From an archaeon (GTDB taxonomy: Archaea; Nanobdellota; Nanobdellia; SCGC-AAA011-G17; GW2011-AR17): a DNA stretch of 64,000 nucleotides. The stretch lies in the NCBI GenBank assembly GCA_018653605.1, contig JABHYY010000041.1, forward strand, positions 2,874-66,873, in the 5' to 3' direction. Position numbers and translations under genes: made by a program. The first letter of the stretch is position 1. The number at the start of each line of letters is the position of its first letter. The notes beneath the pieces were generated by a model. It made no database searches and was not told the DNA's origin. It worked only from the letters and a program-made list of their open reading frames with translations. Below, piece after piece: positions 9,268 to 53,447 of the stretch.

Positions 9268-11562
9268 ATGAAATTTCCTGTTGTTGATGCTTTTTTGATT
9301 GAAAGGGGTTCTGGAAAGATTGGTGTTTGTTGTAACACTCTTTCTCCTGACTCTGTTGAGGTTGAGAGTGATGATGTTGCTGTGATTGGTAGATTGGTTG
9401 TAAATAGAGATGGGGCTGAAAGAATGATTATTAACTCTCTTGTTCATCCTCAGATTGAATATTTAATTCTGTTTGGTGAAGAGAGTGCAAGTTTTTGTCC
9501 GAGCACTAATCTATTGTTAGCTATTATGGATGGTTATGAAGATGGTAGAATTAAAGGAGGGAGAGGATTGGCTGCACTCTATCCTAACATAAGTGTTGAA
9601 TTGTTAGAAAAATTTAAAGAAAATGTTATTGTTTTACCTATGTTCTTGAATAAAGATACAAAAGATGTTGTTGGAAAGTATTTGGATTGGTTAAAAGGAA
9701 AGGTTGGTGATGAAATTTATAGTAAATTGGTTGAAATTAATTCTAAGAAAAAAATTTATTTTGATTCTTTGAATGAAATGGTTGGATTGATCGAAAAAGT
9801 TCCTGCTAAAAAAATTAAGGAATTTGCTTTAGATCCTAAAGAGTTTCAACATTTGCAACCACCTATTATAGTTTTGGAAGGGGATGATGAAATTCAAGAT
9901 GTTAAATTTAAAGTTGTTAGAGTTGATGATGGGATCTTGTTGAATATATATATAGGTGAATGGGTTTATTCTTTGAAAGGGAATGATAGTTTTTTGATGG
10001 CTTATTCCTTAAATGAATTTTTGAATAAAAAAAAAGTTAAGTTAAATGTTGTTGATTGTTTGTTAATTGGTACTGAATTGTCTCGTATTGAAGTTGAGAT
10101 TAGAAGTGGTATCAAAAGTGAAGGCTTTGTTCAATCTAATCTATCTGAAGGAGAGGTAATTCCATTGCTTAAGGAAACTGATTTGAAAGCTGATAAAGAG
10201 TATTATTATAAGGTTGGTTTGAAAGATGATAAGGTTTATGTACAAAGTTTAGCAAATGATAATTCTAAAGAGGCTTATGAGTATCGATGTGATAAATTGT
10301 GGCCTTTGGTTCAAAAGATTGCTGAAGATTCTAGGTTTGAAGATTATGAACAAAAAACTTTGCATTGTATTGATGTTGGGATTGAAATGGCTAGGGCTTG
10401 TATTGCTTTGAATAATGGAATGAACTATTTTCAAGACTTTAGGAATTTGTTTAAAGTGAATAAAGATAAACTGCCTTTATTGATTGTTAAAGGGAATAAT
10501 TTCTTGGGTACACATCAAAAGATAATTACTGAATTGTATACAAAAGGGTTAACTATGACTCACCCAGATAATCATAAAGGTACAATGAGGTCTGGTTGTG
10601 TTCTTGCTGTGTATAGAAATTCTGATAAGGTGTTTGATGTAATGCCTGATGTGTATGCTTCTGATAATCAAAGTACTTCTGAAATGAGAAGGTTGTATAG
10701 GGAACAGTTGTTGTCTGCTGATTGTGCTGGAACTTATACTTATGGTGAAAGAACTAGAAAGTATTTTGGGAAGGATCAGTTAGTGGAAGCTGTTAGGGTT
10801 CTGAAGGAAAAGAAAGTGTTTGTTGTTCAAAGGTTTGATTTTAATGAGGATATGGGTGTAAAGGAAGTTGATGGGAATTTGAAGTTTACTAAAGACCCTT
10901 GTTTAACTCATGATATTTATTTTGTGTTGGGTGGGAAGTTACATAGTCTTCATATAGCAAGAGCACATAATATTGTTAATGCTTATCCTGAGAACCTTTT
11001 TGGGTTGCATGATTCTTATGATTCATTTGTAGCTAAGGAATTAGGTGTGGAGTTAGGTGATTTGTTTATGTTGTCTAATAGAGCAAATATTTTACTTTTG
11101 ACTGAAGAGCAGAAGACTCGAAAGTTTATTGCTGAGGTTTCTAAAGAAATGAAAGATCTGGAAAGTCCTGTTGGCCCTAACAAAGAGTTTGGAAAAGGTA
11201 TTAGTTATGGTGAGTTTGTTATGGAAGAGGTTTTTGAAGTTGAACATAGTGATTTGGAAAGGTTGGAGAATTATAATGGTGAAGATATTATTGCGAGAGC
11301 TATTAAGTATTTGAAATTGAAAGGTAATTGTCATAATAATCCTATATTAGGTACTTATGATCCTAGGAAAGGTTCTTGTGGAAGGTTATTATTTTTTCAA
11401 GCTAATGAAAGAGGAGGAAAGTTGTTTGCAAGTGCTGTATTCTTAGGAAAGGGAGAGAAGGATAAAGAATTATGTGATTATATTGCAACAAAGTACAAAA
11501 AAGAGTTGGGTGTTGAATTAGGTGATGTCTTTATGTTTCACATTGGAGTTGAAAATGATTAA
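9268..11562 (+). CDS. Fusion protein: N-terminal MtrA-like (H4MPT methyltransferase subunit A homology) domain + central region + thymidylate synthase (ThyA/dCMP-hydroxymethylase) fold domain + C-terminal extension with partial duplication
   Basis: Residues about 10-130 align with the MtrA N-domain as recalled (IGVCCNTLS..., [36 protein letters not shown]..., [24 protein letters not shown]). Residues about 390-650 align with E. coli ThyA: YGERTRKY vs [35 protein letters not shown] vs [50 protein letters not shown] vs [35 protein letters not shown] vs CDLEVGDFVWTG. The catalytic Cys is conserved (codon 10900-10902). The ELGVELGD(L/V)FM element recurs at the extreme C-terminus. Confidence 0.6.
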   Translation: [764 protein letters not shown]

Positions 11563-12181
11563 AGTTATTGGATTTGATTTAGATCAGACTTTGTATCCAA
11601 AATCTTATCATATTGATGAAGCTATTCAGCTTTATATTTATGAAAAAATTTCTGAATTTAAAAAATGTAGTTTAGAAGAGGCTAAGGAATTGTTTTGTAG
11701 TTATTATCCTGAATTAAGTGGTAGTAAGGCTTTGATGAAGTTAGGTGTGCCCGATGCAAGGAATATTATACAAGAGGCTTTGGAGAGAGCTGATATTGAC
11801 AAATATTTAGAACCTAATGAAGAATTGAAAAAATTGTTGCTGAAATTGAAAGATAAGTATATTGTTGATTTGATTACTGGTTCTAATAAAGGAATTGCTT
11901 TGAAAAAGTTAGCAAGGTTAGATATTCCTATTGAATTGTTTAATGTTGCGATCACTGGAGAGATTGCTAAATCAGATGGAACGGCTTATAGAGAATGGTT
12001 AAAAAATTATGGTTATGATGCTTCTGAGTTTCTTTATATTGGAGATAGAAAAAGTACTGATGTTGATGTTCCTAAAGAATTAGGAATAAATTCTTTTTTG
12101 GTTAATGTGACTAAATTTGATGAAAATCTTGAAATTAAGCAATTTAAATCTATACTTGATATAGGCGAAGTTCTACTATAG
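11555..12181 (+). CDS. HAD-superfamily hydrolase (phosphatase)
   Basis: Starts MIKVIGFDLDQTLY, which carries HAD motif I DxDxT. The ATG at 11555 overlaps the upstream stop (ATGATTAA). The track start at 11522 is probably too far 5-prime. Confidence 0.7.
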   Translation: MIKVIGFDLDQTLYPKSYHIDEAIQLYIYEKISEFKKCSLEEAKELFCSYYPELSGSKALMKLGVPDARNIIQEALERADIDKYLEPNEELKKLLLKLKDKYIVDLITGSNKGIALKKLARLDIPIELFNVAITGEIAKSDGTAYREWLKNYGYDASEFLYIGDRKSTDVDVPKELGINSFLVNVTKFDENLEIKQFKSILDIGEVLL

Positions 12182-12196
12182 AAATGCTTTTAATAT

Positions 12197-13114
12197 TTGA
12201 AGTCAGAATTGTTTTATATGGCTCCTAATATTACTTTTGAAAAAATTCTTCCAAAAGAAGACATTCTTAAGATGCTTAATAATATTGTTTTTAGAGGAGT
12301 TTATGATTCTGAAGGAAACCCTTTGAGGCCTTATGAAGGAGCTAAATTTTCAATGGTCAAGATCCTACCACCTGAAAGACCTACATCTTTTCCTAGAATT
12401 ATGCATAATTTTCAGCAACATCCTTTGTTTACTGCACAGCCTACTATTTATGCTGATCAAACAGAGATTATGGATAATGTTGATAATTTTTTGAAAACAA
12501 TTGATAAGAGGATTTTTAATATTGGTTTTGAAGGTGTACAATATTATTGGGAAGGTAGGGGAAGATTTCATATTATCCCTCCAATTATTGAAAAACATGT
12601 TTACCCTTTGAAAGATGGTTTTTTAGATTTTGAAAAAATGTCTAAGAGATTTGAAGGAGCATTTGTTAAAGATGCTAAAGGTGAGTTGCATCCTTTGTTT
12701 GAAAAAGTAATTAGAGATTTTTATATTGACCATGGAAGTAAGGTCAGTTACATGAATGTATTTCATCATAATGCAGAATTGATTAATTATGGCTTGAGGT
12801 TTAATGGAAATCATGAATTTTTTATTATTTGTGATGGTAGCCATAGAATAGATTTTGCTTTAGAACATTTAGATGAACCAACTAATGCTATTGTTGTTGA
12901 ATCTGATAATCTTCTCCCATACTATGCTTTTCCTATGCCCTTTAGACCTGTAACAAGATTGACTAGTAAAAAAGCTGAAAGAATGTATCCAAGATTAGAA
13001 AGAGATAAAGTGCATCTTCTTAATTCTTTTATTAAAAAGGTGTTACATTATGATTGGGTTAAGGGAGGATTACATGTTAGCTCATTACGAAATAAAAAAT
13101 TTCAACCTTGGTAA
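12197..13114 (+). CDS. ParB/sulfiredoxin-like (DGxHR motif) domain protein
   Basis: HEFFIICDGSHRIDFALEHLDEPTNAIVVE at about 12826-12900 resembles the ParB-like nuclease/Srx motif (LIDGHHRxxAAxxLGLxxIPAIVV). The N-terminal 200 aa are unassigned. Confidence 0.5.
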   Translation: MKSELFYMAPNITFEKILPKEDILKMLNNIVFRGVYDSEGNPLRPYEGAKFSMVKILPPERPTSFPRIMHNFQQHPLFTAQPTIYADQTEIMDNVDNFLKTIDKRIFNIGFEGVQYYWEGRGRFHIIPPIIEKHVYPLKDGFLDFEKMSKRFEGAFVKDAKGELHPLFEKVIRDFYIDHGSKVSYMNVFHHNAELINYGLRFNGNHEFFIICDGSHRIDFALEHLDEPTNAIVVESDNLLPYYAFPMPFRPVTRLTSKKAERMYPRLERDKVHLLNSFIKKVLHYDWVKGGLHVSSLRNKKFQPW

Positions 13115-13928
13115 GTTAAAAGAAAGTTTGGATAGGTGTTGGTTGAATAAGGGTAAGTTTCATTCTAGTTCTGTTGCAATAACTTCAAATGGTGAATATT
13201 ATTCTGGGTTAATGGAATCAAAAACTCATTTGTTGGATATAAGTTCTGAGCAAGGTGCTTTGGTTTGTGCTGTATCTTGTAAAGATCCTCATGTTAAGGA
13301 AATTGTAACTTTGGTTGCTGGAGAGTTTAGTTTGAATCCTATTATTGTTAAGGTGTTATGTGATCATGTTCGAAGAACTGGAACTTATATTAAATATAAA
13401 GTTTACAATTTGGAAGGTTCTGAGTTGTTGAATTTGGATGTGATGGATACTTATTATAGGCCTGAGATTAAGGTGTTAGAAAAAATTAGTTCCTGGGAAA
13501 AAAGAGAGTGTAAAAAGAAGTATGATGAGTCAAAAGATTTGAAAGAGCAATTAAAAGAGTGTGCTCTTTTGGGTATGGAGACTCATTTTTCTTCAAGTAC
13601 AAAAACATGTTATGGGGGTTCTGTTTTATCTGGTGGTTGGATTTATTTTGGTGGAGTGTACAGTAGTTTTGATCATAGGATGAATTTGCATTCTGAGATG
13701 AGTGCTTTTTTTTGTGCTTTGGCTGATGGTTGTAAGGATGTTGAAGCTATTGGATTGGTTAGTACTAAATTTGTTTCAGAAGTTCCACAAATGTGTGGGT
13801 GTTGTAGGCAGTTTTTTTCTGAAATAAATAAAGAAGTTATGTTTTATGGATTTAGTATGGATGGTACAAAAGTGTTTGAGAAAAATTTGAAAGAGTATTT
13901 GCCTTCTGCTTGGGATTCTAATATTTAG
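13050..13928 (+). CDS. Tandem cytidine-deaminase-fold protein (degenerate N-terminal copy + intact C-terminal CDA domain)
   Basis: C-terminal half: [11 protein letters not shown] ... [13 protein letters not shown] ... EYLPSAW aligns with B. subtilis Cdd (CAERTAL ... PCGACRQ ... ELLPGAF). N-terminal half keeps the fold spacing ([21 protein letters not shown]) but lacks the Zn ligands. Overlaps the upstream gene by about 65 nt, so the start is uncertain. Confidence 0.6.
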
Positions 13929-15799
13929 TTCTTACCATTTAACTTTTTTAATAATCTTTCTTTGCCTTTCCAAACCAAAGCTTGTTTTAGAACTTGTGAA
14001 ATGTTTGAAACAGGAATTATTTTAATTTTCTTTTGATCTTCTTTGGATAATACTAAATCTTGTTCATTTGATTTTGGGATTATAACTCTTTTAATACCTG
14101 CATCTATTGCTGCTTCTACCTTTGCTGTAACCCCTCCGATAGCAAGTACTTCTCCTCTAATAGATAATGATCCAGTCATTGCTGTATCTTGTCTTATTGG
14201 AACTTGTTTAAGTGCTGAAACTATTGATGTTGCTACTGCTATTGAAGCTGAATCTCCTTCAACACCACCATCTGCTGTTTGTAAAAATTGTACAAAAATA
14301 TCATAATTTTCTTTTACATCTTCATTAAAATATTTTAGGATTATAACTGAAACATTTTTTACTGCTTCTTTTGCAATCTCTCCAAGCTTACCTGTTGCAA
14401 CAAACTCTGTTTTTTTACCACCAAGTGTAACTTCTGATTCAATGGGTAATACAATTCCTGAAAAAGCTGCATCTGAACCAATTACTGCTAAACCATTTAC
14501 TCTTCCAACTTGAACACCTTTTGTTTTAATTACTTCATATTTCTTTTTTGCTTCAATATACTTATCTGCAATTTGTTGTTCCAAAGTTCTTGAAAGTTTT
14601 TTTGCTTGGTTTACATGAATAGGTTTAACATATTTTTCATTTTCTTCTAAAGCTAGGTCACCTGCAGCCCTTACTAAACCACCAAGTTCTCTTAATCTAA
14701 CTGTTAACTTTCCTGAGGTTGAAGCCATCTTCTTTGCTTCATTAATAATTACTTCAACAGCTTGTTTGGTAAAGTGAGGAATTTTTCCATCTTTGATAAC
14801 TTCTTGTGCAACAAACATTGCAAGCTTTTCTTTATTTTCCTTTGTGTCATCCATTGTATCATTCATATAAACTTCATAACCATAACCTCTTATTCTTGAT
14901 CTTAAAGCTGGATGCATGTGTTTGACTGTTTCATAGTTTCCTGCTGCAACTAAAACAAAATCACATGGAACTGGTTGTGATCTTGTCATTGCACCTGAAG
15001 ATCTTTCTGATTGTCCTGTGATGGAATATTTTTTTTCTTGAATTGCTGAAAGTAATTCTTGTTGTGAATGTGGATTTAATGTTGAAATTTCATCTATGAA
15101 TAAAACTCCACCTGATGCTCTATGAATCATTCCTGGAACAAGCCTTTCATGTGCAGGTGTTCCTAAACCTCCTGATTGTAAAGGATCATGAAGACAGTCA
15201 CCTAATAATGCACCTGCATGTGCACCTGTTGCTTCTAAGAAAGGTGCTTTTTTCTTATTTGAATTATCAAGTAATAATTTTGGTGTTTGGGTTTTGTTCA
15301 TTCCACCCATTTTTTTACTTAAGTTTAAGAAAATCATGAAACCTATTATGAATACAATACTAGTTATCATGGATGCTGCGTATACAATAGGTGAATCAAA
15401 TGGAAATATCTCTTTTGCGTATAAATAGTATGGTAAAATTGATGCTATGATTACGAAAATGAAAAGTATTATGTTTTGGTTTCTGAATGTTCCCATAGAT
15501 TGAAGTTTTGCTTGAGTTACTATTTGTTTACCTTTACCTTTTGAAACTGTTCTGATTAAAGGGACATTTTCATCTGTTTGATTATGGTAAGATAAGATGT
15601 CTTTTAATTTTTCATTTGGTAGAAGTTCGGCTAGTGCTTGGCCAATCATTGACTTTCCTGTACCTGGAGAACCTATTAATAATACATGCCTTCTTTGCTT
15701 TGATGCTTTTTTTATTATTTTTGTTGCATCTTCTTGACCTATAATTTGATTTACTATTTCTTTTGATACTTTTAGATCGGCTGTTGTCTTATATTGCAT
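13925..15799 (-). CDS. lonB: Archaeal membrane-bound Lon protease (LonB)
   Basis: Walker [13 protein letters not shown]; two TM helices inserted in the AAA domain ([18 protein letters not shown]..., [14 protein letters not shown]); C-terminal Lon proteolytic domain with DGDSASIA (catalytic Ser) and a downstream Lys. 624 aa. Confidence 0.9.
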
Positions 15800-15875
15800 G
15801 ATTTAGAGGAGAAGTAAGGTTTTCTTTATATAGTTTGTGATGGGTGTTTTGTTTGTTTGACGCCTATGTTAGCTA

Positions 15876-16130
15876 TTATTTATACTTCAATTTTAAATAT
15901 AATATTGATCCTGCTAAAATTAAACCAATTCCATTCATTATAGCTACTGGACCATTTTTAATTAATATTGCATAAGTTATCCATAATATTAATCCAGCAA
16001 CATATATTATATATCTTGATAGAGACAAATCTTTTGTTGATTTGGTTTTCCAACTTTTTATTGTTTGAGGTAATAAAGAAATAACTACTAATGTTCCTGC
16101 TAAATAACCTAAAATATCAATAAAAAACAT
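15876..16130 (-). CDS. PQ-loop / SemiSWEET-like 3-TM membrane protein
   Basis: 84 aa with three predicted TM helices and LPQTIKSWKTKSTKDLSLS, a PQ-loop motif as in bacterial SemiSWEETs. Confidence 0.55.
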   Translation of the reverse strand: MFFIDILGYLAGTLVVISLLPQTIKSWKTKSTKDLSLSRYIIYVAGLILWITYAILIKNGPVAIMNGIGLILAGSILYLKLKYK

Positions 16131-16140
16131 AAGAAAAAAA

Positions 16141-16401
16141 TTAAACTATGTCGTCTTCTGAAACTACTACAAAGTCACCTACTGCGATAACTGCTGAAAA
16201 AGGTACACACCAGTTTCCATTCTTATCTTGTTCAATATCTAATTGATCTATGTAGCTTGTAGGATTCTTAAGAATAATCTGCATTAATTCACCTGTTCTT
16301 GTTTCAAAATTAATATTTCCAACCACACCAAATTTTTTACCTGATTTGGTTACAACTGTTTTATCCATAAGATGTTTTGAGTATTTTTTATCGTCTTCCA
16401 T
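16141..16401 (-). CDS. PRC-barrel domain protein
   Basis: LMDKTVVTKSGKKFGVVGNINFETRTGEL is typical of PRC-barrel proteins. 86 aa. Confidence 0.55.
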   Translation of the reverse strand: MEDDKKYSKHLMDKTVVTKSGKKFGVVGNINFETRTGELMQIILKNPTSYIDQLDIEQDKNGNWCVPFSAVIAVGDFVVVSEDDIV

Positions 16402-16450
16402 TTGAGTTCCTCCTAGTTAAGCTAATTGTATAAGTCATTTAAATAGTTTA

Positions 16451-16765
16451 TTATTCTTCAATGTTCTTATCTACAAAATCTTCTGCCTCTTCTTTGGCAT
16501 CTTCAAAGATTTCAATCTCATCCCAGGCTGGTAAATCTACATTATCCTTTAATGCATCTACTACAGCTGCTCCTGTTTGAGTAAAACTGTTTTCTGGTGC
16601 AAAAAATTCACCTAAATCTATGTATGCTGCTCCAACAAGCAACAATATAACTCCAATTACTAAATATAATAAAATCTGTGAAACACTTTTACCTATTCTA
16701 TGCTTAAAAATCTCTAATAATACAATAATTACTACAAATGCTATTAATAATATAAGTACTTTCAT
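16451..16765 (-). CDS. Small membrane protein (2 TM) with acidic C-terminal tail
   Basis: Hydrophobic helices MKVLILLIAFVVIIVLL and LLYLVIGVILLLVGAAYI, then an acidic tail. Confidence 0.4.
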   Translation of the reverse strand: MKVLILLIAFVVIIVLLEIFKHRIGKSVSQILLYLVIGVILLLVGAAYIDLGEFFAPENSFTQTGAAVVDALKDNVDLPAWDEIEIFEDAKEEAEDFVDKNIEE

Positions 16766-16813
16766 ATTTACTATATGTGTTGTAATGGTATAAATAGTTT
16801 ACTGTGGTTTTTA

Positions 16814-17245
16814 TTGACCCCCTCACACCTTGATTGCGTATGGAGATTTGGTTTTGGTTTTGGTTGTTGTGTTTGTATTAATTTTATTAGTTGTTTCTTA
16901 TGGAAATAAGTTAAATTAAATAGGTTTTAGAGAGGGAAAAGAGGGTAAAATAATATAATATATTGCTTCATTATTATTATTATTATTATTATTCTAATTC
17001 TTTAATATATTTATAATAGAAGCTCTAATTCTCAAGAATTTTATTTTCTCTTTTTTATTTTATTTATATGTTTTTCTATATTATATTATATTATATTATA
17101 TTAGTATTAATATAATATATATATTGTATTGTGTTATCATTATATAGTTCTATTGGAAACAAAGGGGTTGATTTAAAAAGGGATGAATTTGGTGATCCAT
17201 TATTTATGTTGAAATGATTTCCATAGGAAATGATGGAGGGGGTGT
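16814..17245. promoter_or_regulatory. oriC: Predicted chromosomal replication origin (oriC): three ORB/G-string-like elements flanking an AT-rich DUE, adjacent to orc1/cdc6
   Basis: Element 1 at about 16814-16834 is inverted: its reverse complement reads atcaaggtgtgaGGGGGTcaa. Element 2 at about 17153-17171 is ttggaaacaaaGGGGTtga. Element 3 at about 17224-17245 is ataggaaatgatggaGGGGGTg. Between them, 16930-17140 is very AT-rich with (tta)n and (attat)n microsatellites. Genes to the left are all on the minus strand and genes to the right on the plus strand. orc1/cdc6 starts 52 bp downstream. Confidence 0.6.
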
Positions 17246-17296
17246 TTATTTTTAATAATGAAAATGCTTAAATAGTTTATTTGTGTATTTGGAGAT

Positions 17297-18508
17297 ATGG
17301 TAAAAAAAGGAGTTGATAGTTTTTTTGATGATTTTCTGAAAAAGGAACCTTTGTTTAAAGATAAGTCTGTATTGCAAGCTAATTATAGTCCAGATAATAT
17401 TCCTCATAGGGAAGAACATATTGAAAAGGTTGCTGGAATATTAGCTCCTGCTCTTAGAGTTGAAAAGCCATCTAATATGTTTATTTATGGGAAAACAGGT
17501 TCTGGCAAGACTTTAGTTGTTAAGCATGTAACTGAAAGTATGGAAAAGATTGCTGAAAAAAATGGTCTTGCTATAAAAATATTTTATTTGAATTGTAAAA
17601 TGAAAAGAGTTGCTGATACTGAATATAGGTTGATTGCTGAAATGGCTAGAGCTTTAGGTGTTGAAATACCTGCAACTGGTTTGCCTACAGATGAAGTTTA
17701 TAGAATTTTTGTTGATAATTTAGAGAAGAGAAAGATTTTGTTAGTTTTAATATTAGATGAGATTGATCAGTTGGTTTCAAAAGCAGGAGATCAAGTTTTG
17801 TATTCTTTAACTAGGTTTAATTCTGAATTAAAAAATAGTTTGATTTCAATTGTTGGAATAAGTAATGATTTAATGTTTACAAATTATTTAGATCCGAGAG
17901 TTAAAAGTTCTTTATCTGAAGAAGAGTTGGTTTTTCCTCCTTATAATGCAATTCAATTGCAAGCAATATTGAAAGAAAGAGCTAAAGATGCTTTTAGGGA
18001 AGGAGTTATTGTTGATGGGGTTTTAGAAAAGTGTGCTGCATATGCTGCAAGGGAACATGGTGATGCAAGAAGAGCTTTAGAATTATTAAGGGTTGCTGGT
18101 GAATTAACTGAAAGAAAAAATAGTAAACAAATTAGTATAGATATATTAGATGAAGCTGAAGAGAAGGTTGAAAGAGATAGAGTTCATGATATTATTTTAA
18201 GTCAACCTAAACAATCACAAATTACTTTGTTAGCAATATTTGAAGCTGTAAAACAAATTGGTAACAAACCTTTATTTACAGGGGATGTATATGAGTTGTA
18301 TAAAGAATTATGTTTTAAAGTAAAGATTAAACCTCTTACACAAAGGCGTATTTCGGATCTTGTTGCTGAGCTTGATATGCTTGGAATAATTCATGCAAAA
18401 GTTATTAGTAAAGGAAGATATGGTCGAACAAGACAGTTTGGGTTGGGTGTACCTCCTTCAACAGTTCCGAAACTTGAAAAGTTGTTGAAAGAGGTTTTAA
18501 ATGTCTGA
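17297..18508 (+). CDS. cdc6: Orc1/Cdc6 replication initiator
   Basis: Walker A IYGKTGSGKTLVVKHV, Walker B LVLILDEIDQL, AAA+ lid and C-terminal winged-helix. 403 aa. A TATA-like ttaaatag lies about 25 bp upstream of the ATG, suggesting a leaderless transcript. Confidence 0.9.
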   Translation: MVKKGVDSFFDDFLKKEPLFKDKSVLQANYSPDNIPHREEHIEKVAGILAPALRVEKPSNMFIYGKTGSGKTLVVKHVTESMEKIAEKNGLAIKIFYLNCKMKRVADTEYRLIAEMARALGVEIPATGLPTDEVYRIFVDNLEKRKILLVLILDEIDQLVSKAGDQVLYSLTRFNSELKNSLISIVGISNDLMFTNYLDPRVKSSLSEEELVFPPYNAIQLQAILKERAKDAFREGVIVDGVLEKCAAYAAREHGDARRALELLRVAGELTERKNSKQISIDILDEAEEKVERDRVHDIILSQPKQSQITLLAIFEAVKQIGNKPLFTGDVYELYKELCFKVKIKPLTQRRISDLVAELDMLGIIHAKVISKGRYGRTRQFGLGVPPSTVPKLEKLLKEVLNV

Positions 18509-19964
18509 AATTAAAAAATTAGTTGGTTTTTTGTTTGAAAAGAATTACATAGTTACACCTGAAGTTTTGAAAAGTGTTCCGAGTGATTTTAATTTTGATA
18601 TTTTTTATGAAAATGTTGGTTCTACTATGAAAAGGCAAGATAAAGGGGTAGTTTTTGATAAAAGTTTGTTGTTTGTTGAGGAAGATGAAGTAAAAACTAA
18701 TTTGAAAATTGTTTGGAATTATGATAAAGAACCTGGTAAAGTTGAAGTAAAAGATTTTGTAACTTATTATAAGAATAGATATAATCAATTAAAAAAAATT
18801 TTAATGCAAAGAGAAGGGTTACAAGGTTGTGTTTCAATTTCAAGGGCTTTAAGAAAAGGTTCTGATGAAGTTGTTTCAATAATTGGTTTTGTTTATAATG
18901 TTGGAATTACAAAGTCAGGTCATATTATGTTGGAGTTAGAAGATCCTACTGGAAAAATAAAAGTTTTGTTGAGTAATAAAAATAAAGAGCTAATGGAACT
19001 TGGTAAGGAGATTGTTCACGACGAGGTTATTGGTGTTAGTGGAGGAACAGGGAGTGATATTATTTTTGCAAGAGATGTTTATTTACCAGATATTGCTTTG
19101 AAAGAATATAAAAAATGTGCTGATGATGTTAATGTAGTTTTTGCAGCCGATATGCATATTGGTAGTACTTTATTTATTCCTGAAGATTTTGAAAGGTTTG
19201 TTAAGTGGTTGAATATGGAATATGGTGATGAAGAACAAAAAGAGATAGCAAAAAAAGTGAAGTATTTATTTTTTGCTGGAGATATTGTTGATGGTGTTGG
19301 AATTTATCCTGGGCATGAGAAGGAAACAAATATTACAGATATTGTTGAACAGTATAATGTTTGTTTTGATTATATTTCTAGAATTAGAAAAGATATTAAG
19401 ATTGTTATTTGTGGTGGGAATCATGATGCTTTAAGATTGTCTGAACCTCAACCTGCTTTGAATAGAGAGTTTGCAGCAAAGTTGTATAGTTTGCCTAATG
19501 TACATATGGTAACAAATCCTTCTATAATAAATATTCATGCTGTTGATGGATTTGTTGGGTTTGATGTTTTATTATATCATGGAATGGGTTTTGATTATTA
19601 TGTTAACAATGTTGATTATATAAGAAATAATGGTGGATATGATAGAGCTGATTTAATGATGGAATTTTTGTTAAAGAAAAGGCACCTTTGTCCGACGCAC
19701 ATTGCAGGTTTGTCAATGCCTGATATAGAGAGTGATCCTTTAGTTATTGAACAAGTTCCTGACTTTTTTGTATCAGGACATATGCATCATGATGTGTTGG
19801 TTGGTAATTATAAAAATGTTTGTTTAGTTGGGTGTGGTAGTTTTCAAAGCATGTCTTCTTTTCAAGAAAAAATGGGACATGAAAACATAATCCCTTCAAA
19901 AGTTCCAATTATTAATCTTAAAACAAGAAAAATAAAAGTTTTAGATTTTAGTGAAACAGACTGA
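18501..19964 (+). CDS. polB: DNA polymerase II (PolD) small subunit DP1
   Basis: Calcineurin-like/Mre11-type phosphoesterase motifs (FAADMHIGS, FFAGDIVDG, ICGGNHDA) after an N-terminal OB-like region. Overlaps the orc1 stop by 8 nt, as in the operon form. Confidence 0.85.
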   Translation: MSEIKKLVGFLFEKNYIVTPEVLKSVPSDFNFDIFYENVGSTMKRQDKGVVFDKSLLFVEEDEVKTNLKIVWNYDKEPGKVEVKDFVTYYKNRYNQLKKILMQREGLQGCVSISRALRKGSDEVVSIIGFVYNVGITKSGHIMLELEDPTGKIKVLLSNKNKELMELGKEIVHDEVIGVSGGTGSDIIFARDVYLPDIALKEYKKCADDVNVVFAADMHIGSTLFIPEDFERFVKWLNMEYGDEEQKEIAKKVKYLFFAGDIVDGVGIYPGHEKETNITDIVEQYNVCFDYISRIRKDIKIVICGGNHDALRLSEPQPALNREFAAKLYSLPNVHMVTNPSIINIHAVDGFVGFDVLLYHGMGFDYYVNNVDYIRNNGGYDRADLMMEFLLKKRHLCPTHIAGLSMPDIESDPLVIEQVPDFFVSGHMHHDVLVGNYKNVCLVGCGSFQSMSSFQEKMGHENIIPSKVPIINLKTRKIKVLDFSETD

Positions 19965-20083: not shown

Positions 20084-23000
20084 ATGAATTCTAAAAATAA
20101 AATAATAGTCGTAGCTATGTTAATTGTGTGTATGTCAATCTTAATGGTAAATTCTGTTGCCGCATTAAATTGTTGGGATAAAGATGGAACAACTATGGAT
20201 GAGTGTACAGATTATGATGTAAATGTTAATGGAGAAGCAGATGATTGTTGGTGGGATAGTTGGGGATCCTATTGTATGGAAAAAGGTTGTTGGGATCAAT
20301 CATCTCAAGAATCTTGTAATGCTGAAAACGATACTGGGTGTATTTGGAAATCAGAATCAGATATGGGATGGAATACTGGATGGTGTACTGATTTAGCTGA
20401 TTGTTGGAACCAATGGGATTATGATGGATGTACTGGTGTGAGTGGATGTGCTTGGAAAAATGCTTCTTGTCAAGGGCCTCCTGGTTGTGATGATGTTTTA
20501 AGTGAAACAAGTTGTTATGGTTCTTCTTTAGGATGTTGGTGGGATTATGGCTCTTATTGTTATTCTCCTGGATGTTGGGATTATGGAGGAAGTTCAGATT
20601 GTGGAAATGCTACTGGATGTAATTGGGTATCAGATGCTTATTGTACTGAATTAGGTGGAGGATCTTATTTTTTTAATAACCAAACATCTTGTGAAATAGC
20701 TGGATTTATTTGGGAAAGTTGGGGTAGTGGAGATGATGGATATTGTTATCAACCTAATTGTTATGATTATAGTGATACTTTAACTTGTAATAATGCATCA
20801 AGTGGAGATTGTGCTTGGAGTGTTTATGATTATTGTTATGAAAAGTCTTGTTGGAATTATTGGAATCAAACAGCTTGTACAGATAATGGTGATAGTGTAG
20901 TAGGTGGTTGTGATTGGACTAATTCTGGTTATTGTTCAGAACCAAGTTGTCCAAGTTTTGATGGGAATGCAACTGGTTGTAATGCAAGTGTAGGGTGTAT
21001 TTGGGATGCTGATAATAGTCAATGTCAATATGAAGGGTGTTGGAATTATTATGATACAGGATCTTGTGCAAATGTTACTGGTTGTCAATGGAAAGAAACT
21101 TCTTGTATGGGAAGTTCTGGTTGTGAAAATTTAGAGACATATGATGCTTGTTATGATTCTTCTTTATCTTGTTGGTGGGATTATGGAGATTATTGTGAAG
21201 AAACAGATTGTTGGGATTTTGATGATAATCAAAGTTATTGTGAAACAGATAGTTTGACATATAATTTAGATTGTACTTGGGATTCTTATTGGGGAGAATG
21301 TTGGGAAAATTGGTGTGGTGAGTATTCAACTGAAAACTCATGTAATGATAGTGTTTCTGGTGATTGTTATTGGGATGCAAATGCAAATTATTGTTATGAA
21401 GAAAATTGTTGGGGTTATTCTGATGAAACAAATTGTGAAAATAGAGGATGTGCTTGGGATGGAGATTATGGGTATTGTGAACAAGCATCTGCTGCAAGTT
21501 GTTATGATTTAACTCAAAGCGAATGTACTAATGGAACTTATAGTACAAGTTGTAAGTGGGATTATGGTTGGGGTGGAACTGATGGATGGTGTTCTGATAG
21601 AGGGTGTTGGGATCTTTATGATTCAACAAGTTGTTCAAATGCTAGTCTTGATGTAAGTTGTGAATGGGTAACTGATTCCGGTGGTTGGTGTGAAGAAGAA
21701 GGTACAAATTGTTGGGATTATTATACAGAAGAAAATTGTGGTGCAAATAATTGTACTTGGGATGCTGCTTATAATAGTTGTTATGAAAAAGGTTGTTGGG
21801 ACCATTGGACAAATTCAAGTTGTGCAGCTGATTCAAGTTGTCAATGGTCAACTGGTTCTGCTGACTGGGGATGGTGTGAAAAAGTTTCATGTTGGTCATG
21901 GGATAATACAAATGAATCTGGTTGTGAAAACAATAGCTATAGTTTAAGTTGTGAATGGGACAATAGTAGTAGTGGATGGTGTATGGGTCCATGGCAAAAT
22001 AACTGTTGGGAATTAGATGCTTGGCAAGGTGGAAATGCTTCTGCTTGTAATGCTTTAAACACAACTGGAGAAAATTGTACTTGGCAAGCAATGAGTGGAT
22101 GGTGTTATGAATCAAGCAAAACTTTTAGCGATTTTACATCAGAAGGTGAATGTTTGAGTAGTGGTTGGGGTAGTTGGAATGGAAGTGATTGTGTTGTTTC
22201 AGAACAAACTGATTTTCAAAACCCTGGTTGTTGGATATTTGATGGTAAACCAACTGAGTGTAATGGTATACAAGGATGTACTTATAATACAACAAGTACT
22301 GAATGTAGTGGCTTAGACATATTAGGAATACAGTGTGAAAATATTAGTAGTGTAATTGCAAATAATGTAACTAATACTACATTGTGTGAAGTTTTACCTA
22401 TGTTGTCAACTTGTTGTAAGTATCAAGGTGGACAGTGTGCAACAAGTTATGATACAGCTTGTTGGGATCAAATGGCTGATCCTCCAGAAGGTGCAACATT
22501 TTGTTCTGATTTTAATGTAATAGATAGTAGGCCTTTGTGTGATCAGATTTCAGGTGAACCTTGGTATATGCCTTGTACATGGAATAATGTAAGTACTGAA
22601 TGTGGATTTAAAGGTGATCTTACAGATGATTTAGATAATATTAAAACTAAGAAAGAGTGTGCGTTTGTAGGTGGAACTTGGAAAACTGAAAGTGTTTGTG
22701 ATGATGCATCTAATTGTCCTTATGCTGAAACTTGGTGTGAAATAGAAACAGGTTCATCTTTGTATGGATGTGATATGTCTTGTTGGGCTTGTAATACATC
22801 TACTTCTTGTCGTTCATCTACTAAAGGTTATTGTATGTGGGTGCAAGATACAAGTTTAACTCAAGGAGGATACTGTGATATTCCAGAAACTATAGAAACT
22901 TTTGGAGATTGTGATACATCTTGTCCTTCATGTGAATACTATAGTGGTGGTACTTTTACACCAGAAGAAGCTTGTTTAGCAAGTAAGAATCAATGTAAGT

Positions 23001-26000
23001 GGGATAATTCAACTGAAAGTTGTATTGAGAAAAAAAGTAAAGGTTGTGGAGATGATTGTTTCTATTGTTATAATCTAGATGATTGTAATATGAATGGTGG
23101 TGGAGCTCAAGGAACTTGTAAGTGGGATAATAGTGATGGAATGTGTACTCCTGCTAATTTTGATAGTGAGATTTGTTTTGATGGAAGTGACAACGACAAT
23201 GATGAATTAGTTGATTGTGAAGATCCAGAATGTACTTTTGATCCTTTCTGTGGAGGAGGAGAAATGGGAGAATGTTGGTTATACCAAGATAGTACTAGTT
23301 GTGGAATTCAAAGTGATTGTGAGTGGATACAAGATCCTTGGACAAGTGATTATAGATGTGGTATGAAAGGTGAATCTTGTTGGATGTATCAAACAAATGT
23401 TACTGGTTGTGGTTCAGATGTAAATTGTAAGTGGTATGAAAATACTTTTTGTGAAATAAATCACTCTTTATCTGAAACTTGTTTTCAAAAAACAACTGAG
23501 AGTGGTTGTGAGGCAGTAAGTTCTTGTAAGTGGCAAGCTGATCCATACAGTCCGCAAGATGGATGGTGTGACTTTGCAATGTTTGAATGTCATTGGAACT
23601 CTACATTAGGTGGAAGCAGAACTAATTGTGAATCTAATTCATTGTGTAGTTGGGTAACTGATCCTTGGTCCGGTAGTGGATGGTGTGATCCTAAATGCTT
23701 TGCAAAAGATAGTGATGGCGATGAGTTGTATACAACACAAAGTTCTTGTGAAGGTGCAGTAACAGGTGGACTTTGTGAATGGTCTTCTGGATGGTGTGAA
23801 CCAAATGTTACTTCTACTGGTTCTGTAGATGGAAGAGATTGTCCTTCATACGATGGTAACATGACTTCTTGTGAAGAGCAGCCTGGTTGTGCTTGGTTTG
23901 AACAACACATGTCTGGAAGTGATCATGTTGATAGTGAAGAAGGTGGTTTCTTTGGATCACAATGTGATGTTAAACATGAGTTAGCTGTAGATTGTTGGAT
24001 GTTGAGAAATCAAACAGAATGTAATTTTACCAATAGAACAAATGGATATAATAATACAGGTGATCAAGATGCATGTAGGTGGATTACTGAAGGTAGTTGG
24101 TCTTGGTGTGAACAAATAGGTTGGCATTGTGGTCCCACTTATTCACCATTTAATATGACTACTTATCAACCAGAAACTGATACAGCTGCATGTGCTGCAG
24201 ATCCTTATTGTATGGTTGATACAGATGAATATATGGGTAATCAAGAAGTTTGTGTCTCAAATTGTTTTAATGTTAGTTTGGGTCAGTCTGATTGTGAAAG
24301 TGTAAATACGCAATTAGGAAGTCAGATGTGTGTGTGGTATGGTTTTGGTGGAGGTGGTGGAGAATCTACTGGTGGATGGTGTGATCCAAAAGGTTCAGAA
24401 GCAATATTTGAAAGTATGGAAAGTGGTGTACCTTACATGTTAGGAAGTGATGTATGTGGTGCTGGTTCCGATGATGCTGCATTGAATGATTGGATAGATC
24501 TTTGTGGTGCTGGTATAAAAGAAACCAATGATGACTATATGATGGGTATGGGTTTGTCGTCTATGACTTATGCCGGAGTTTGTAATGGTGAATCACTTTG
24601 GGATGGAAGTACTGGAAGTGGAAGAAAAGCTACTAAAGGTTATTGGTATTTAGATACTGATGGAACTACAGACAATAATTGTTATTCAGATGATGGTGCA
24701 GAGAATGGATTTGAGTTTAAGTTGGTTGCTGAATGGACTTGGTCTGATGAAGGCTTAAAAGAAATGTTAAGTGCAAAGAGATGTTCTAATAGTAGTTGGG
24801 TTGCAGCAAATATTAGATTGGATACACATGCTAAAAAAATGTGTCAAGAAATGCAAGGAATGATTGTTACTGTTAAGAAAGCTGACTTGAATAATTTCCC
24901 TAGTTTGTTTGATATAAGTCATCCAATGAGAATATATTCTGTATCTGCAGGTGAAAATAATACTGCAACTGCTCCAGCCGATAGTGTGGGTCCAAATTAT
25001 TATAAATCTGGAACTGTAGATTTTAAGTTAGAACATTGTGATTCTATTGGTAAAGTTGACAAGGATGGCGATGGTTTTTATTCCTATGAAGATCCAGATT
25101 GTAAGCACATGTATATGGATGAAGAATTTGGTATGAAAGGAACTGAAGATTGTACAAACTTGATTGATGACGATAGAGATGGTGCAATAGATTGTACTGA
25201 TATACAATGTAAAGATGAAGTTGTTTGTGGTTCAGCATTTGCAGTTAATGCAACTGATAAAGAAGCACCTGAAGTAATTGAAATTGATGCAGATGAAAAT
25301 TCTAATACTGCACAAATTGTTGTTAAGACAGAAGAGAGAGCGAATGTTACTTTGAAGTTCTACAATAACGACAGTACTGGTTCAAGAATTAATTCAACAA
25401 TTAGAGCTGAAGGAATGCAGAAAGGAAACTTTACTGATGAAAGAGAAAGGTTTGTGTTTAATAGTGTAATTAGTCTAAATAACTTTACAACTAATACAGA
25501 TATGTTGAATTATACATTAGATAATGCAACCACCTATTATTATAGGGTTGAAGTTTGTGATGTGTCTGGTAATTGTGGAGAGTCTGGATTAAGAAACTTT
25601 ACAACAAAAGCTGTAACAGAAAGATCTACTATTAAAGTTACTGATAGTGATTCAGGACAGACTTGGCAAATAGATAATGGAAGTGGAACATATGCTAATC
25701 CAGGTAGTGCTTGTTCTTCATCAAGTACTTCAACATTAGGTGAGCCTATTGATCCGGATCAAATTAGTGAAGTTGATTTGAGAATGCAGTTGACTAATGC
25801 AGATAGTTTAGCAATGGAAGTAAGACTTGAAGGTGTTGAAACTGGTTCAGATGTTATTGCTCCTTTAGATTTAGATATTGGAACTTTAACTGGTTCAGAG
25901 TCTGATGTAACTGAAGATTACTTTGCAATTGATGAAAGTGATTGGGGAGGTAATGATGGTATCTATAGTGTGGGTCATCCTGACACATTAGTGTTGAGTT

Positions 26001-26476
26001 ATCCTGGTGATGATACTGAGTTGTGGGATTGTGCAGCTTTATCTGGAAGCACTCCAATAAATTGTACTAACATTACTGGTTATGCAATAAGAAGTTATAG
26101 TTCAGGTACTGACATTACTGAATGGACAATTTCAAATCCACCAATACATATTTGGTCTTACATTATAGATCAAACACCTGTTGCAGCTGCGGCTGAAGAA
26201 AGTTCTAGTTCTTCTGGTGGTGGCGGTAGTGGTGGCGCTGGTTCAACTACAAGTGATGAAGAAGAGGAAGAAGAAAGCACAGATCCTGTAAGTGAAGTTA
26301 TTGATGGTGTTGTAGAAGATGTTGGAGATGTTGCTGGTGAAGCAGGACAAAGGGTAGCTGAGTTTGCAGAAGATGTAGGTGAAAGTTTTACTGACTTTGG
26401 TTGGTTATGGTTTGCACTTGCTTCAGTGATTGCAGTTGGAGTTGTGTTGTTTATAGTCTTTAGAAAAAAGGCTTAA
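20084..26476 (+). CDS. Giant (2130 aa) secreted Cys/Trp-rich repeat surface protein with TSP3-like Ca-binding motifs, FN3-like module and C-terminal acidic stretch + TM anchor
   Basis: N-terminal signal peptide MNSKNKIIVVAMLIVCMSILMVNSVAA. Dozens of C..W...GCW(D/N) repeats. DGSDNDNDELVDCEDPECTFDPFC and DDDRDGAIDCTDIQCKDEVVC motifs. FN3-like segment ...YYYRVEVCDVSGNCGESGLRNFTT. The C-terminus is a poly-Glu stretch, then QRVAEF, then a TM helix (GWLWFALASVIAVGVVLFIVF), then RKKA. Confidence 0.8.
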   Translation: MNSKNKIIVVAMLIVCMSILMVNSVAALNCWDKDGTTMDECTDYDVNVNGEADDCWWDSWGSYCMEKGCWDQSSQESCNAENDTGCIWKSESDMGWNTGWCTDLADCWNQWDYDGCTGVSGCAWKNASCQGPPGCDDVLSETSCYGSSLGCWWDYGSYCYSPGCWDYGGSSDCGNATGCNWVSDAYCTELGGGSYFFNNQTSCEIAGFIWESWGSGDDGYCYQPNCYDYSDTLTCNNASSGDCAWSVYDYCYEKSCWNYWNQTACTDNGDSVVGGCDWTNSGYCSEPSCPSFDGNATGCNASVGCIWDADNSQCQYEGCWNYYDTGSCANVTGCQWKETSCMGSSGCENLETYDACYDSSLSCWWDYGDYCEETDCWDFDDNQSYCETDSLTYNLDCTWDSYWGECWENWCGEYSTENSCNDSVSGDCYWDANANYCYEENCWGYSDETNCENRGCAWDGDYGYCEQASAASCYDLTQSECTNGTYSTSCKWDYGWGGTDGWCSDRGCWDLYDSTSCSNASLDVSCEWVTDSGGWCEEEGTNCWDYYTEENCGANNCTWDAAYNSCYEKGCWDHWTNSSCAADSSCQWSTGSADWGWCEKVSCWSWDNTNESGCENNSYSLSCEWDNSSSGWCMGPWQNNCWELDAWQGGNASACNALNTTGENCTWQAMSGWCYESSKTFSDFTSEGECLSSGWGSWNGSDCVVSEQTDFQNPGCWIFDGKPTECNGIQGCTYNTTSTECSGLDILGIQCENISSVIANNVTNTTLCEVLPMLSTCCKYQGGQCATSYDTACWDQMADPPEGATFCSDFNVIDSRPLCDQISGEPWYMPCTWNNVSTECGFKGDLTDDLDNIKTKKECAFVGGTWKTESVCDDASNCPYAETWCEIETGSSLYGCDMSCWACNTSTSCRSSTKGYCMWVQDTSLTQGGYCDIPETIETFGDCDTSCPSCEYYSGGTFTPEEACLASKNQCKWDNSTESCIEKKSKGCGDDCFYCYNLDDCNMNGGGAQGTCKWDNSDGMCTPANFDSEICFDGSDNDNDELVDCEDPECTFDPFCGGGEMGECWLYQDSTSCGIQSDCEWIQDPWTSDYRCGMKGESCWMYQTNVTGCGSDVNCKWYENTFCEINHSLSETCFQKTTESGCEAVSSCKWQADPYSPQDGWCDFAMFECHWNSTLGGSRTNCESNSLCSWVTDPWSGSGWCDPKCFAKDSDGDELYTTQSSCEGAVTGGLCEWSSGWCEPNVTSTGSVDGRDCPSYDGNMTSCEEQPGCAWFEQHMSGSDHVDSEEGGFFGSQCDVKHELAVDCWMLRNQTECNFTNRTNGYNNTGDQDACRWITEGSWSWCEQIGWHCGPTYSPFNMTTYQPETDTAACAADPYCMVDTDEYMGNQEVCVSNCFNVSLGQSDCESVNTQLGSQMCVWYGFGGGGGESTGGWCDPKGSEAIFESMESGVPYMLGSDVCGAGSDDAALNDWIDLCGAGIKETNDDYMMGMGLSSMTYAGVCNGESLWDGSTGSGRKATKGYWYLDTDGTTDNNCYSDDGAENGFEFKLVAEWTWSDEGLKEMLSAKRCSNSSWVAANIRLDTHAKKMCQEMQGMIVTVKKADLNNFPSLFDISHPMRIYSVSAGENNTATAPADSVGPNYYKSGTVDFKLEHCDSIGKVDKDGDGFYSYEDPDCKHMYMDEEFGMKGTEDCTNLIDDDRDGAIDCTDIQCKDEVVCGSAFAVNATDKEAPEVIEIDADENSNTAQIVVKTEERANVTLKFYNNDSTGSRINSTIRAEGMQKGNFTDERERFVFNSVISLNNFTTNTDMLNYTLDNATTYYYRVEVCDVSGNCGESGLRNFTTKAVTERSTIKVTDSDSGQTWQIDNGSGTYANPGSACSSSSTSTLGEPIDPDQISEVDLRMQLTNADSLAMEVRLEGVETGSDVIAPLDLDIGTLTGSESDVTEDYFAIDESDWGGNDGIYSVGHPDTLVLSYPGDDTELWDCAALSGSTPINCTNITGYAIRSYSSGTDITEWTISNPPIHIWSYIIDQTPVAAAAEESSSSSGGGGSGGAGSTTSDEEEEEESTDPVSEVIDGVVEDVGDVAGEAGQRVAEFAEDVGESFTDFGWLWFALASVIAVGVVLFIVFRKKA

Positions 26477-26605
26477 TTTTTTATTTTTTTATTTTTTATA
26501 GAGAACAAAGAGTTTTTATTTTTGTGAAACCAATTGAAACCAAATTCTTTTTATTTTTCAGAAAGTTTAGAAAACTTTATAAATCGCTTTGCTATAATTT
26601 AATGA

Positions 26606-34447: not shown

Positions 34448-34463
34448 ATTCTTTATTATTTGT

Positions 34464-52548: not shown

Positions 52549-52549
52549 A

Positions 52550-53446: not shown

Positions 53447-53447
53447 A

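Follow-up and report, generated by a model that had tools for sequence, protein, structure and literature searches.

Is the spacer in front of the initiator gene orc1/cdc6 an origin of chromosomal replication in Woesearchaeota, and how would such an origin work? We addressed this question in a stretch of 64,000 nucleotides (hereafter the window) of contig JABHYY010000041.1 from the archaeal assembly GCA_018653605.1, in which a spacer at positions 16766-17296 separates orc1 from a divergent open reading frame (ORF). The window was compared with 80 loci from Woesearchaeota and Nanoarchaeota (numbered with the prefix L), and together these sequences comprise 884 kb. We conclude that the spacer is probably an oriC1-type archaeal replication origin of a woesearchaeal (DPANN) chromosome, and its designation as an origin-type Orc1-binding locus is well supported by the comparisons. 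What we observed directly in the sequences is that a set of boxes, an AT-rich element and a central motif are present, specific, oriented and deeply conserved, and to which class the initiator belongs.

Boxes, AT-rich DNA and a central motif in the orc1 spacer

The spacer holds four origin recognition boxes (ORBs), with a full ORB (E1) and a mini-ORB on the minus strand and two full ORBs (E2 and E3) on the plus strand (Table 1). All G-strings point outward from the AT-rich center and all cores lie proximal to it. The string GGGG(G)T is located 3-8 nt 3' of the core in each of E1, E2 and E3, and the dyad-like core TTCC..GGAA(A) is intact in E2 and E3. A preliminary description of the window had reported the three elements with G-strings, two facing one way and one the other. 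All three were recovered at the same positions, with E2 and E3 on the plus strand and E1 on the minus strand, and the mini-ORB is a fourth element that the description had missed.

The orc1-proximal boxes of the relatives yielded the ORB consensus aGTTCCATAGGAAATagAGGtstgGGTgT, and these boxes are typically located about 84 nt 5' of the ATG. Element E3 lies 84 nt 5' of the orc1 ATG, the modal position in the relatives. The pattern TTCCATAGGAAATNANGGNGT, built from the relatives only and with the window excluded, was searched on both strands with up to three mismatches. It matched three sites in the 64-kb window, namely E1, E2 and E3, as compared to an expected number of 0.10, and three matches were reached in none of 100 shuffles. 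The best match was E3 with a single mismatch, and E1 had three. With a profile hidden Markov model (HMM) built from the boxes of the relatives, the only significant matches in the window were E3 (19.5 bits, E = 6e-4) and E2 (14.6 bits, E = 0.025 over 884 kb), with weak matches also to the mini-ORB (16892-16907) and to the G-string half of E1. The profile gave nothing above 4.3 bits in 16 kb of flanking sequence from other contigs. Thus, the elements are clustered at this locus, with all three consensus matches of the 64 kb found here and none in the flanks.

The G-string GGGGGT alone is not enriched in the window (7 occurrences, 11.4 expected), showing that the signal is a composite, variably spaced element. 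No match was obtained with the fixed-spacing pattern GGAAAY-N10-GGGGT because the spacing of the G-string varies. Among 71 short inverted-repeat pairs in the spacer, pair I12 consists of E1 and E3, whereas pairs I4 (82%) and I16 (78%) join the mini-ORB with E3 and E2, respectively. A direct-repeat search and Tandem Repeats Finder (TRF) listed these inverted core pairs and did not group the ORBs as a family, since the elements are too divergent. A purine-rich tandem repeat, two copies of AGAGGGAAA, was observed at 16931-16949 between the mini-ORB and the AT-rich element.

The AT-rich stretch between the inverted boxes is a predicted duplex unwinding element (DUE). The least stable 100-bp duplex of the window is located at 17054-17153, with a free energy of -91.4 kcal/mol as compared to a mean of -121.7 and a standard deviation (sd) of 5.9, which is a difference of about 5 sd. 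The stretch of about 200 bp had been described as microsatellite-like, and this agrees with the runs (ATT)8 at 16970-16993 and ATATT/TA at 17038-17124. Two copies of CTAATTCT inside the DUE (16994-17001 and 17025-17032) are conserved in an alignment of six genomes. Contigs from 18 of the 80 relatives end inside the DUE, at positions corresponding to about 16950-17080 of the window (including L001, L004, L006, L009-L011, L025 and L034), and so do three contigs from the same species (L084-L086). In short-read metagenomes, assemblies break systematically at this probable origin.

A short oriented motif, here called the central element, is present inside the DUE. A profile of this element, built with the window left out, gave 37 matches in the 884 kb, of which 33 fell between -330 and -150 of orc1 on the plus strand. 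The sole match in the window was at 17064-17090. The element is situated off-center, at a distance of 69 bp to E2 and of 170 bp to the mini-ORB. It is not a known RNA, since a scan of 16300-17500 against Rfam at E <= 1 identified no RNA family. A coding role was considered and found not to be plausible, as the spacer contains only spurious ORFs of 23-57 aa.

The initiator encoded next to the spacer is most similar in the Protein Data Bank to Orc1-1 of Sulfolobus solfataricus (2QBY_A, E = 4e-107) and to ORC1 of Aeropyrum pernix (2V1U, E = 5e-99), with Orc1-3 reaching only 7e-45. These two best matches are the two initiators that have been crystallized on ORB DNA. The TQRR motif of the helix-turn-helix and the GRYG motif of the wing align identically between the Orc1 protein and the crystallized initiators. 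Judged by these similarities, the adjacent initiator is of the Orc1-1 class.

From these features we infer that Orc1 would bind the site, load MCM, regulate its own gene and fire the origin. The four boxes would be occupied, in a fixed polarity, by monomers of the Orc1-1-class protein produced from the adjacent gene. The solved Orc1-ORB complexes suggest, by analogy, a placement of the winged helix on the TTCCAnnGGAAA core and of the AAA+ domain with the initiator-specific motif (AAA+/ISM) over the G-string. In this arrangement, E1 and the mini-ORB would face E2 and E3, with the cores proximal to the unwinding element of about 200 bp, and Orc1-ATP on the boxes would recruit MCM to the AT-rich DNA between them. 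The central element probably serves to position melting, or else to bind an accessory factor or the T-rich single strand. Orc1 probably represses its own gene, as suggested by the finding that E3 abuts the putative TATA box of orc1.

Table 1. Features of the orc1 spacer and of the genes that border it, in window coordinates.
Feature	Position	Strand	Description
Spacer (probable origin)	16766-17296		531 bp; between the divergent 104-aa ORF (-) and orc1 (+)
Divergent ORF, 104 aa	16451-16765	-	no Pfam match; left boundary of the spacer; TATA-like ATAAATAG at about 16790-16797 (putative promoter)
ORB E1 (full)	16816-16848	-	minus-strand read ATCTCCATACGCAATCAAGGTGTGAGGGGGTC; core CTCCATACGCAAT at 16833-16845; G-string GGGGGT at 16817-16822
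Mini-ORB	16893-16907	-	core without G-string; plus strand GTTTCTTATGGAAAT, minus strand ATTTCCATAAGAAAC
AT-rich DUE (predicted)	16947-17146		89.5% AT; most AT-rich 200 bp of the window
Central element	17060-17091	+	TTATTTATATGTTTTTCTATATTATATTATAT; clade consensus TATATTnTAAGTTTTTCTATnnTATATTATAT; inside the DUE, oriented, about 30 bp
ORB E2 (full)	17146-17173	+	AGTTCTATTGGAAACAAAGGGGTTGA; core TTCTATTGGAAAC at 17148-17160; GGGGT at 17164-17168
ORB E3 (full)	17217-17246	+	ATTTCCATAGGAAATGATGGAGGGGGTGT; core TTCCATAGGAAAT at 17219-17231; GGGGGT at 17238-17243
orc1 TATA box (putative)	17267-17275	+	CTTAAATAG; 22-30 nt 5' of the ATG, directly 3' of E3 (putative promoter)
orc1/cdc6, 403 aa	17297-18508	+	Pfam Cdc6_C, Cdc6_lid, AAA_22
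DP1, small subunit of DNA polymerase D (PolD)	18501-19964	+	Pfam DNA_pol_E_B, Metallophos, OB

Conservation of the layout and comparison with known origins

The spacer is identical in six other assemblies of the same species. The nearest relatives of the Orc1 protein, at 58-77% identity, are all from metagenome-assembled genomes of Woesearchaeota or Nanoarchaeota (DPANN). In the 884 kb of window and relatives, ORB matches of at least 10 bits pile up at two places relative to the orc1 start: the stretch from -200 to 0 holds 83 of them on the plus strand, and the stretch from -500 to -300 holds 44 on the minus strand. The boxes of the window are located at -462 (-), -398 (-, mini-ORB), -138 (+) and -66 (+), and many genomes have the same layout, L002, L014, L016, L021 and L076 among them, in each case with the cores turned toward the AT-rich center. 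The general layout in the relatives consists of minus-strand ORBs near -460 and -400 and plus-strand ORBs near -138 and -66, with the G-strings pointing outward. Positions and orientations of the boxes are kept in about 50-60 divergent genomes of Woesearchaeota and Nanoarchaeota.

The window was also aligned with five genomes, the nearest ones in which the spacer is retained. In this alignment, the four boxes and a TATA-like TTTAAATA before orc1 are visible as conserved blocks, including GACCCCCTCACACCTTGATTTCCTATGGAGA at E1 and TTCTATnGGAAnnnAGGGGT at E2, whereas the rest of the spacer is divergent. The TTTC..ATGGA of the mini-ORB is invariant in all six genomes. Among 50 relatives, the nearest upstream ORF is divergently oriented in 42, and the median length of the spacer is 525 bp, as compared to 531 bp in the window. 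The sequence comparisons indicate strong purifying selection, across the clade, on the positions, orientations and spacing of the ORBs and on the central element.

Two relatives depart from this layout. In L032, the upstream boxes are missing and a divergent pair of ORBs is located about 7.0-7.1 kb downstream of the orc1 start. In L036, the boxes are found at -1781 and -1382, and about 1.1 kb separate the boxes from residue 69 of orc1, which may reflect an insertion that interrupts orc1 at its 5' end.

Near-perfect ORB DNA (GTTCCATAGGAAATAAAGGGGTC) was also observed inside a gene for a protein of about 210 aa with a coiled coil and a winged helix, located 4-6 kb 5' of orc1 in relatives and not present in the window. 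Such sites are found in L012 (about 163), L019 (about 195), L054 (about 2063), L062 (about 1924), L065 (about 845) and L038 (about 1315 and about 1640), among others. The ORB DNA encodes S-(I/T)-G-N-(K/D/E)-G-V, which is the sole conserved stretch of a variable linker. Translation of E2 in a spurious ORF (17131-17217) gives SSIGNKGV, the same peptide as in the linker, and the peptide coincidence is explained by this ORF reading through E2. The site in the winged-helix gene may represent an ORB within a coding region, comparable to dp1 of Pyrococcus, or it may be a coincidence.

The order origin-orc1-dp1, the inverted full ORBs around AT-rich DNA and the additional mini-ORB are features shared with the oriC of Pyrococcus and other Thermococcales. 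The genes for orc1/cdc6 and the PolD small subunit had been said to start immediately downstream of the elements, and the Pfam domains confirm the identity of both genes. The ORB1 and ORB2 oligonucleotides of P. furiosus bind Cdc6, and their reverse complements are GGTTCCAGTGGAAATGAAACTCTGGGGGG and GGCTCCAGTGGAAATGAAACTCTGGGGGA (PMC1904270). They share TTCCAnnGGAAATGA and the G-string with E3, in which the G-string is 2 nt closer. A second cluster of ORBs in dp1, as in Thermococcales, is absent from the window, where dp1 contains only a 5.2-bit match at 19620-19635, and among the relatives the 100-bp bin at +2400 holds just one ORB match of at least 10 bits. The order in Thermococcales is oriC-cdc6-dp1-dp2. 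In the window, dp2 is 16 kb away, behind two giant ORFs, and in the relative L012 it adjoins dp1.

The resemblance to oriC1 of Sulfolobus concerns the inverted ORBs that flank a DUE beside orc1-1 and the initiator itself, which is closest to Orc1-1 of S. solfataricus. Each of the inverted Sulfolobus ORBs is taken to bind one monomer with defined polarity, and bidirectional firing needs both flanking ORBs (PMC12141716). The Sulfolobus DUE contains ucm, a conserved and essential motif that is bound by the MCM-interacting protein UBP, which has been reported only in Sulfolobales and Desulfurococcales (PMC12141716). Like ucm, the central element is a short conserved motif in the DUE between inverted ORBs, but it differs in sequence and is about 30 bp long, oriented and off-center. 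The ucm sequence ATTATACAAAC, searched with up to one mismatch, is absent from the spacer and has two matches elsewhere in the window, as compared to 4.4 expected. The DUE is also longer, at about 240 bp, than the whole Sulfolobus ORB3-DUE-ORB2 unit of about 130 bp. By analogy of position, the central element may correspond to ucm. Alternatively, its T-rich strand could be a single-strand contact for Orc1 (PMC8287685).

Within DPANN, the origin of 'Forterrea' (Diapherotrites) was placed beside cdc6 at the minimum of the cumulative GC skew (PMC5905446). Both are small DPANN genomes with an origin adjoining cdc6. The call in 'Forterrea' was based on skew, whereas the window displays an explicit ORB architecture and a local skew without a switch.

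Strand asymmetry and competing explanations

The plus strand of the window contains 30.2% A, 11.4% C, 21.4% G and 37.1% T. This asymmetry is unusually strong and corresponds to the classical signature of a leading strand (G>C and T>A). The uncorrected cumulative curve of the GC skew is lowest at about 8 kb and only reflects gene orientation. For this reason, we analyzed four-fold degenerate sites, read all bases as they occur on the plus strand, and sorted the genes by strand and by side of the origin. The GC and TA skews were 0.38 and 0.40 for plus-strand genes on the left, 0.46 and 0.08 for minus-strand genes on the left, 0.60 and 0.48 for plus-strand genes on the right, and 0.31 and 0.10 for minus-strand genes on the right. 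The preliminary description had named a skew minimum elsewhere as evidence that would speak against an origin, and locally this is what we found, with no switch at the locus after correction for gene orientation. It had also placed a flip in gene orientation exactly here, which is correct for the immediate surroundings (minus at 13925-16765 and plus from 17297 onward) and does not extend further, since the genes at 9268-13928 are again on the plus strand.

The following results weigh against the interpretation of the spacer as an oriC1-type origin. G exceeds C and T exceeds A on the plus strand in all four gene classes, that is, there is no switch in polarity at 17 kb. A bidirectional origin that generates the skew predicts equal G:C ratios on the coding strands of left minus-strand and right plus-strand genes, whereas the counts were 34:92 and 307:77, respectively (Fisher p = 1e-26). 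Genes of the same orientation did not differ significantly between the two sides (p = 0.07 and 0.40), and the two genes directly to the left of the origin retain the plus-strand bias (G:C of 13:1 and 2:0). Contigs from the same species extend the polarity from -7 kb (L088) to +73.6 kb (L091), about 80 kb in total, without a switch. Among 41 relatives, the GC skew at four-fold sites (GC4) of right plus-strand genes was positively correlated with that of left minus-strand genes (r = +0.61, p = 2e-5), where a switch predicts a value of about -1, and the corresponding correlation for the TA skew (TA4) was r = +0.68. In strongly asymmetric relatives, the sign is the same to the left and to the right and across interleaved genes of both orientations. 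Two of the boxes are moreover weak elements, with two substitutions in the GGAAA of the E1 core and a score of only 6.8 bits by nhmmer for the mini-ORB alone.

Transcription alone was considered as the cause of the skew and was rejected, as the coding-strand preference is reversed between genes of opposite orientation. Several relatives are as strongly asymmetric as the window. Measured against orc1, their asymmetry is positive in L012, L015 and L033, as it is in the window, and negative in L017, L030 and L065. The skew switches at oriC in Pyrococcus, in contrast to the window. The continuity of the polarity suggests that the asymmetry is not made by replication from here, that the origin fires one way, that forks arrive from elsewhere or that the cause is not replicative. 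Only 18 of 224 archaeal RefSeq genomes show the bacterial skew pattern, and skew is for this reason an unreliable guide to the origin in most archaea (PMC7111523).

How far do these results favor other explanations of the locus? The continuity of the asymmetry would be accounted for if this were a genuine Orc1 site while bulk replication starts elsewhere, from another origin or in a recombination-dependent manner, with forks crossing from left to right and the site being dormant, secondary or condition-specific. The excess of keto bases (G+T) on the plus strand is unbroken across the site and independent of gene orientation, and a variable sign among the relatives would be expected if the place or orientation of orc1 within a replichore varied. 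In Thermococcus kodakarensis, the conserved ORB/cdc6 origin is dispensable in the laboratory. We nevertheless consider this explanation unlikely, because strong purifying selection on the ORBs and the central element would be difficult to account for if the origin were unused, the 80 kb examined contain no further ORB cluster, genes diverge locally from the site in 42 of the 50 relatives, and skew is a poor guide in most archaea, as described above. Asymmetry without a switch at an otherwise canonical origin is also what would be seen if the origin were active and fired unidirectionally, or had a terminus immediately beside it, leaving one strand leading chromosome-wide. The layout is indeed asymmetric, with two full ORBs on the orc1 side as compared to a full ORB and a mini-ORB on the other, and with an off-center, oriented central element. 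The proportions of G (21.4%) and C (11.4%) resemble the strand disparity of 15% versus 30% in Ch65, a Candidate Phyla Radiation (CPR) bacterium, which was tentatively ascribed to unidirectional replication (PMC7143001). In both cases, one strand is rich in G over C whatever the gene orientation, and the lineage is ultra-small and host-dependent. Ch65 differs in being a bacterium with a DnaA system, in which the disparity spans the complete chromosome and has no T/A component, whereas about 80 kb were seen here and T>A accompanies G>C. We know of no precedent for unidirectional chromosomal replication from Orc1/MCM origins. The sign of the asymmetry is inconstant among relatives in which the polarity of the origin is conserved, the left-side genes are not co-oriented with a rightward fork, and bidirectional firing in Sulfolobus needs both flanking ORBs (PMC12141716). 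A terminus beside the origin obtains no support, since the Pyrococcus-type dif core GATATAA-N6-TTATATC (up to two mismatches) is absent from the window. Taken together, we judge one-way firing of this kind to be quite improbable. A broader proposal for this lineage and several relatives combines the absence of bidirectional replication from the orc1-adjacent origin, be it through one-way firing or through a start elsewhere or without an origin, with the central element as a DPANN counterpart of ucm bound by some factor. We regard this combination as tentative and on balance doubtful. One-way firing would perhaps be directed by the asymmetric layout of the boxes and the oriented central element.

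It is highly improbable that the boxes are mere operators for control by Orc1 of orc1-dp1 and the divergent gene, with no role as an origin. The location of E3 directly 5' of the putative orc1 TATA box and of E1 near the TATA-like sequence of the divergent gene would fit with operators, as would the off-origin ORB-like DNA inside the winged-helix gene of relatives, but autoregulation needs neither inverted boxes 300-400 bp apart, nor 200 bp of about 90% AT, nor an oriented central element, and in both Pyrococcus and Sulfolobus this layout has demonstrated origin function (PMC1904270, PMC12141716). A chance resemblance in AT-rich DNA of low complexity, or a plasmid or viral replication region, is a negligible prospect. 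The low GC content of the genome (33%), the G-strings that are not enriched by themselves and the 71 inverted-repeat pairs are compatible with chance, whereas the absence of three matches from all 100 shuffles and the conservation of position and orientation in dozens of genomes are not. The shuffles, the conserved pile-up of matches and the 275-kb contig with its housekeeping genes refute these explanations. Thus, the interpretation of the spacer as an oriC1-type origin is the one we prefer. Of the textbook archaeal origin that had been proposed, the inverted ORBs, the DUE and the orc1-dp1 pair stand and are conserved, whereas the absence of a polarity switch over about 80 kb speaks against a bidirectional start of the chromosome here.

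Genomic context and implications

The chromosomal location of the locus is supported by its neighbors, which are housekeeping and replication or repair genes. ArgRS, dCMP deaminase and LonB are encoded on the left side, and DP2, SerRS, MutS, MutL, topoisomerase I (TopA), a RadB-like protein and Cdc48 on the right side, with PolB and FEN1 just past the right edge of the window. The gene at the right end of the window sits on a 275-kb contig, and 18 contigs carry an identical Orc1. The locus thus belongs to neither a plasmid nor a virus. The start of dp1 overlaps the orc1 stop codon by 8 nt, which suggests that the two genes are probably co-transcribed, and the order orc1-dp1 is also found in relatives. 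No tRNA genes were identified in the window.

Several additional features were observed in the window. A tyrosine recombinase gene (Phage_integrase; MrpR_C_cat) is located at 2754-3611 on the minus strand, about 14 kb to the left of the origin. The region at 20084-36293, between dp1 and dp2, contains two giant ORFs without a Pfam match (2130 aa and 2613 aa) and a gene for an M6-family peptidase. In L012, the one relative tested, dp2 follows directly after dp1, whereas in the window it is located 16 kb downstream, at 36348-40310. The giant-ORF block has the appearance of surface-protein genes that were inserted into the replication operon. The DP2 protein is 1320 aa long, as compared to 1191 aa in L012, its catalytic domain was matched in two stretches, and residues 950-1025 gave a weak match to Intein_splicing; DP2 may contain an intein. 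Three tandem Pkinase genes at 51700-54200 adjoin a metallophosphoesterase gene upstream of topoisomerase I.

To our knowledge, replication in DPANN archaea has not been studied experimentally, since almost none of these organisms have been cultivated, and the present archaeon is likewise uncultivated. At present, ORC1 simply serves as the conventional point to which complete genomes of Nanobdellota are rotated (preprint 10.64898/2026.05.13.725050), and in the literature that we searched the origins of this lineage had been taken for granted from the location of ORC1 and not described. The analysis reveals a clear mismatch between origin architecture and strand asymmetry. An architecture with an AT-rich DUE explains why assemblies frequently break at this point. 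Across the clade it comprises four boxes at fixed spacing and a central motif of defined orientation, and it can be used for annotation of origins. Dhanaraju et al. (2025) asked whether lineages outside Sulfolobales have ucm-like origin elements (PMC12141716), and the central motif is a concrete candidate answer to this question.

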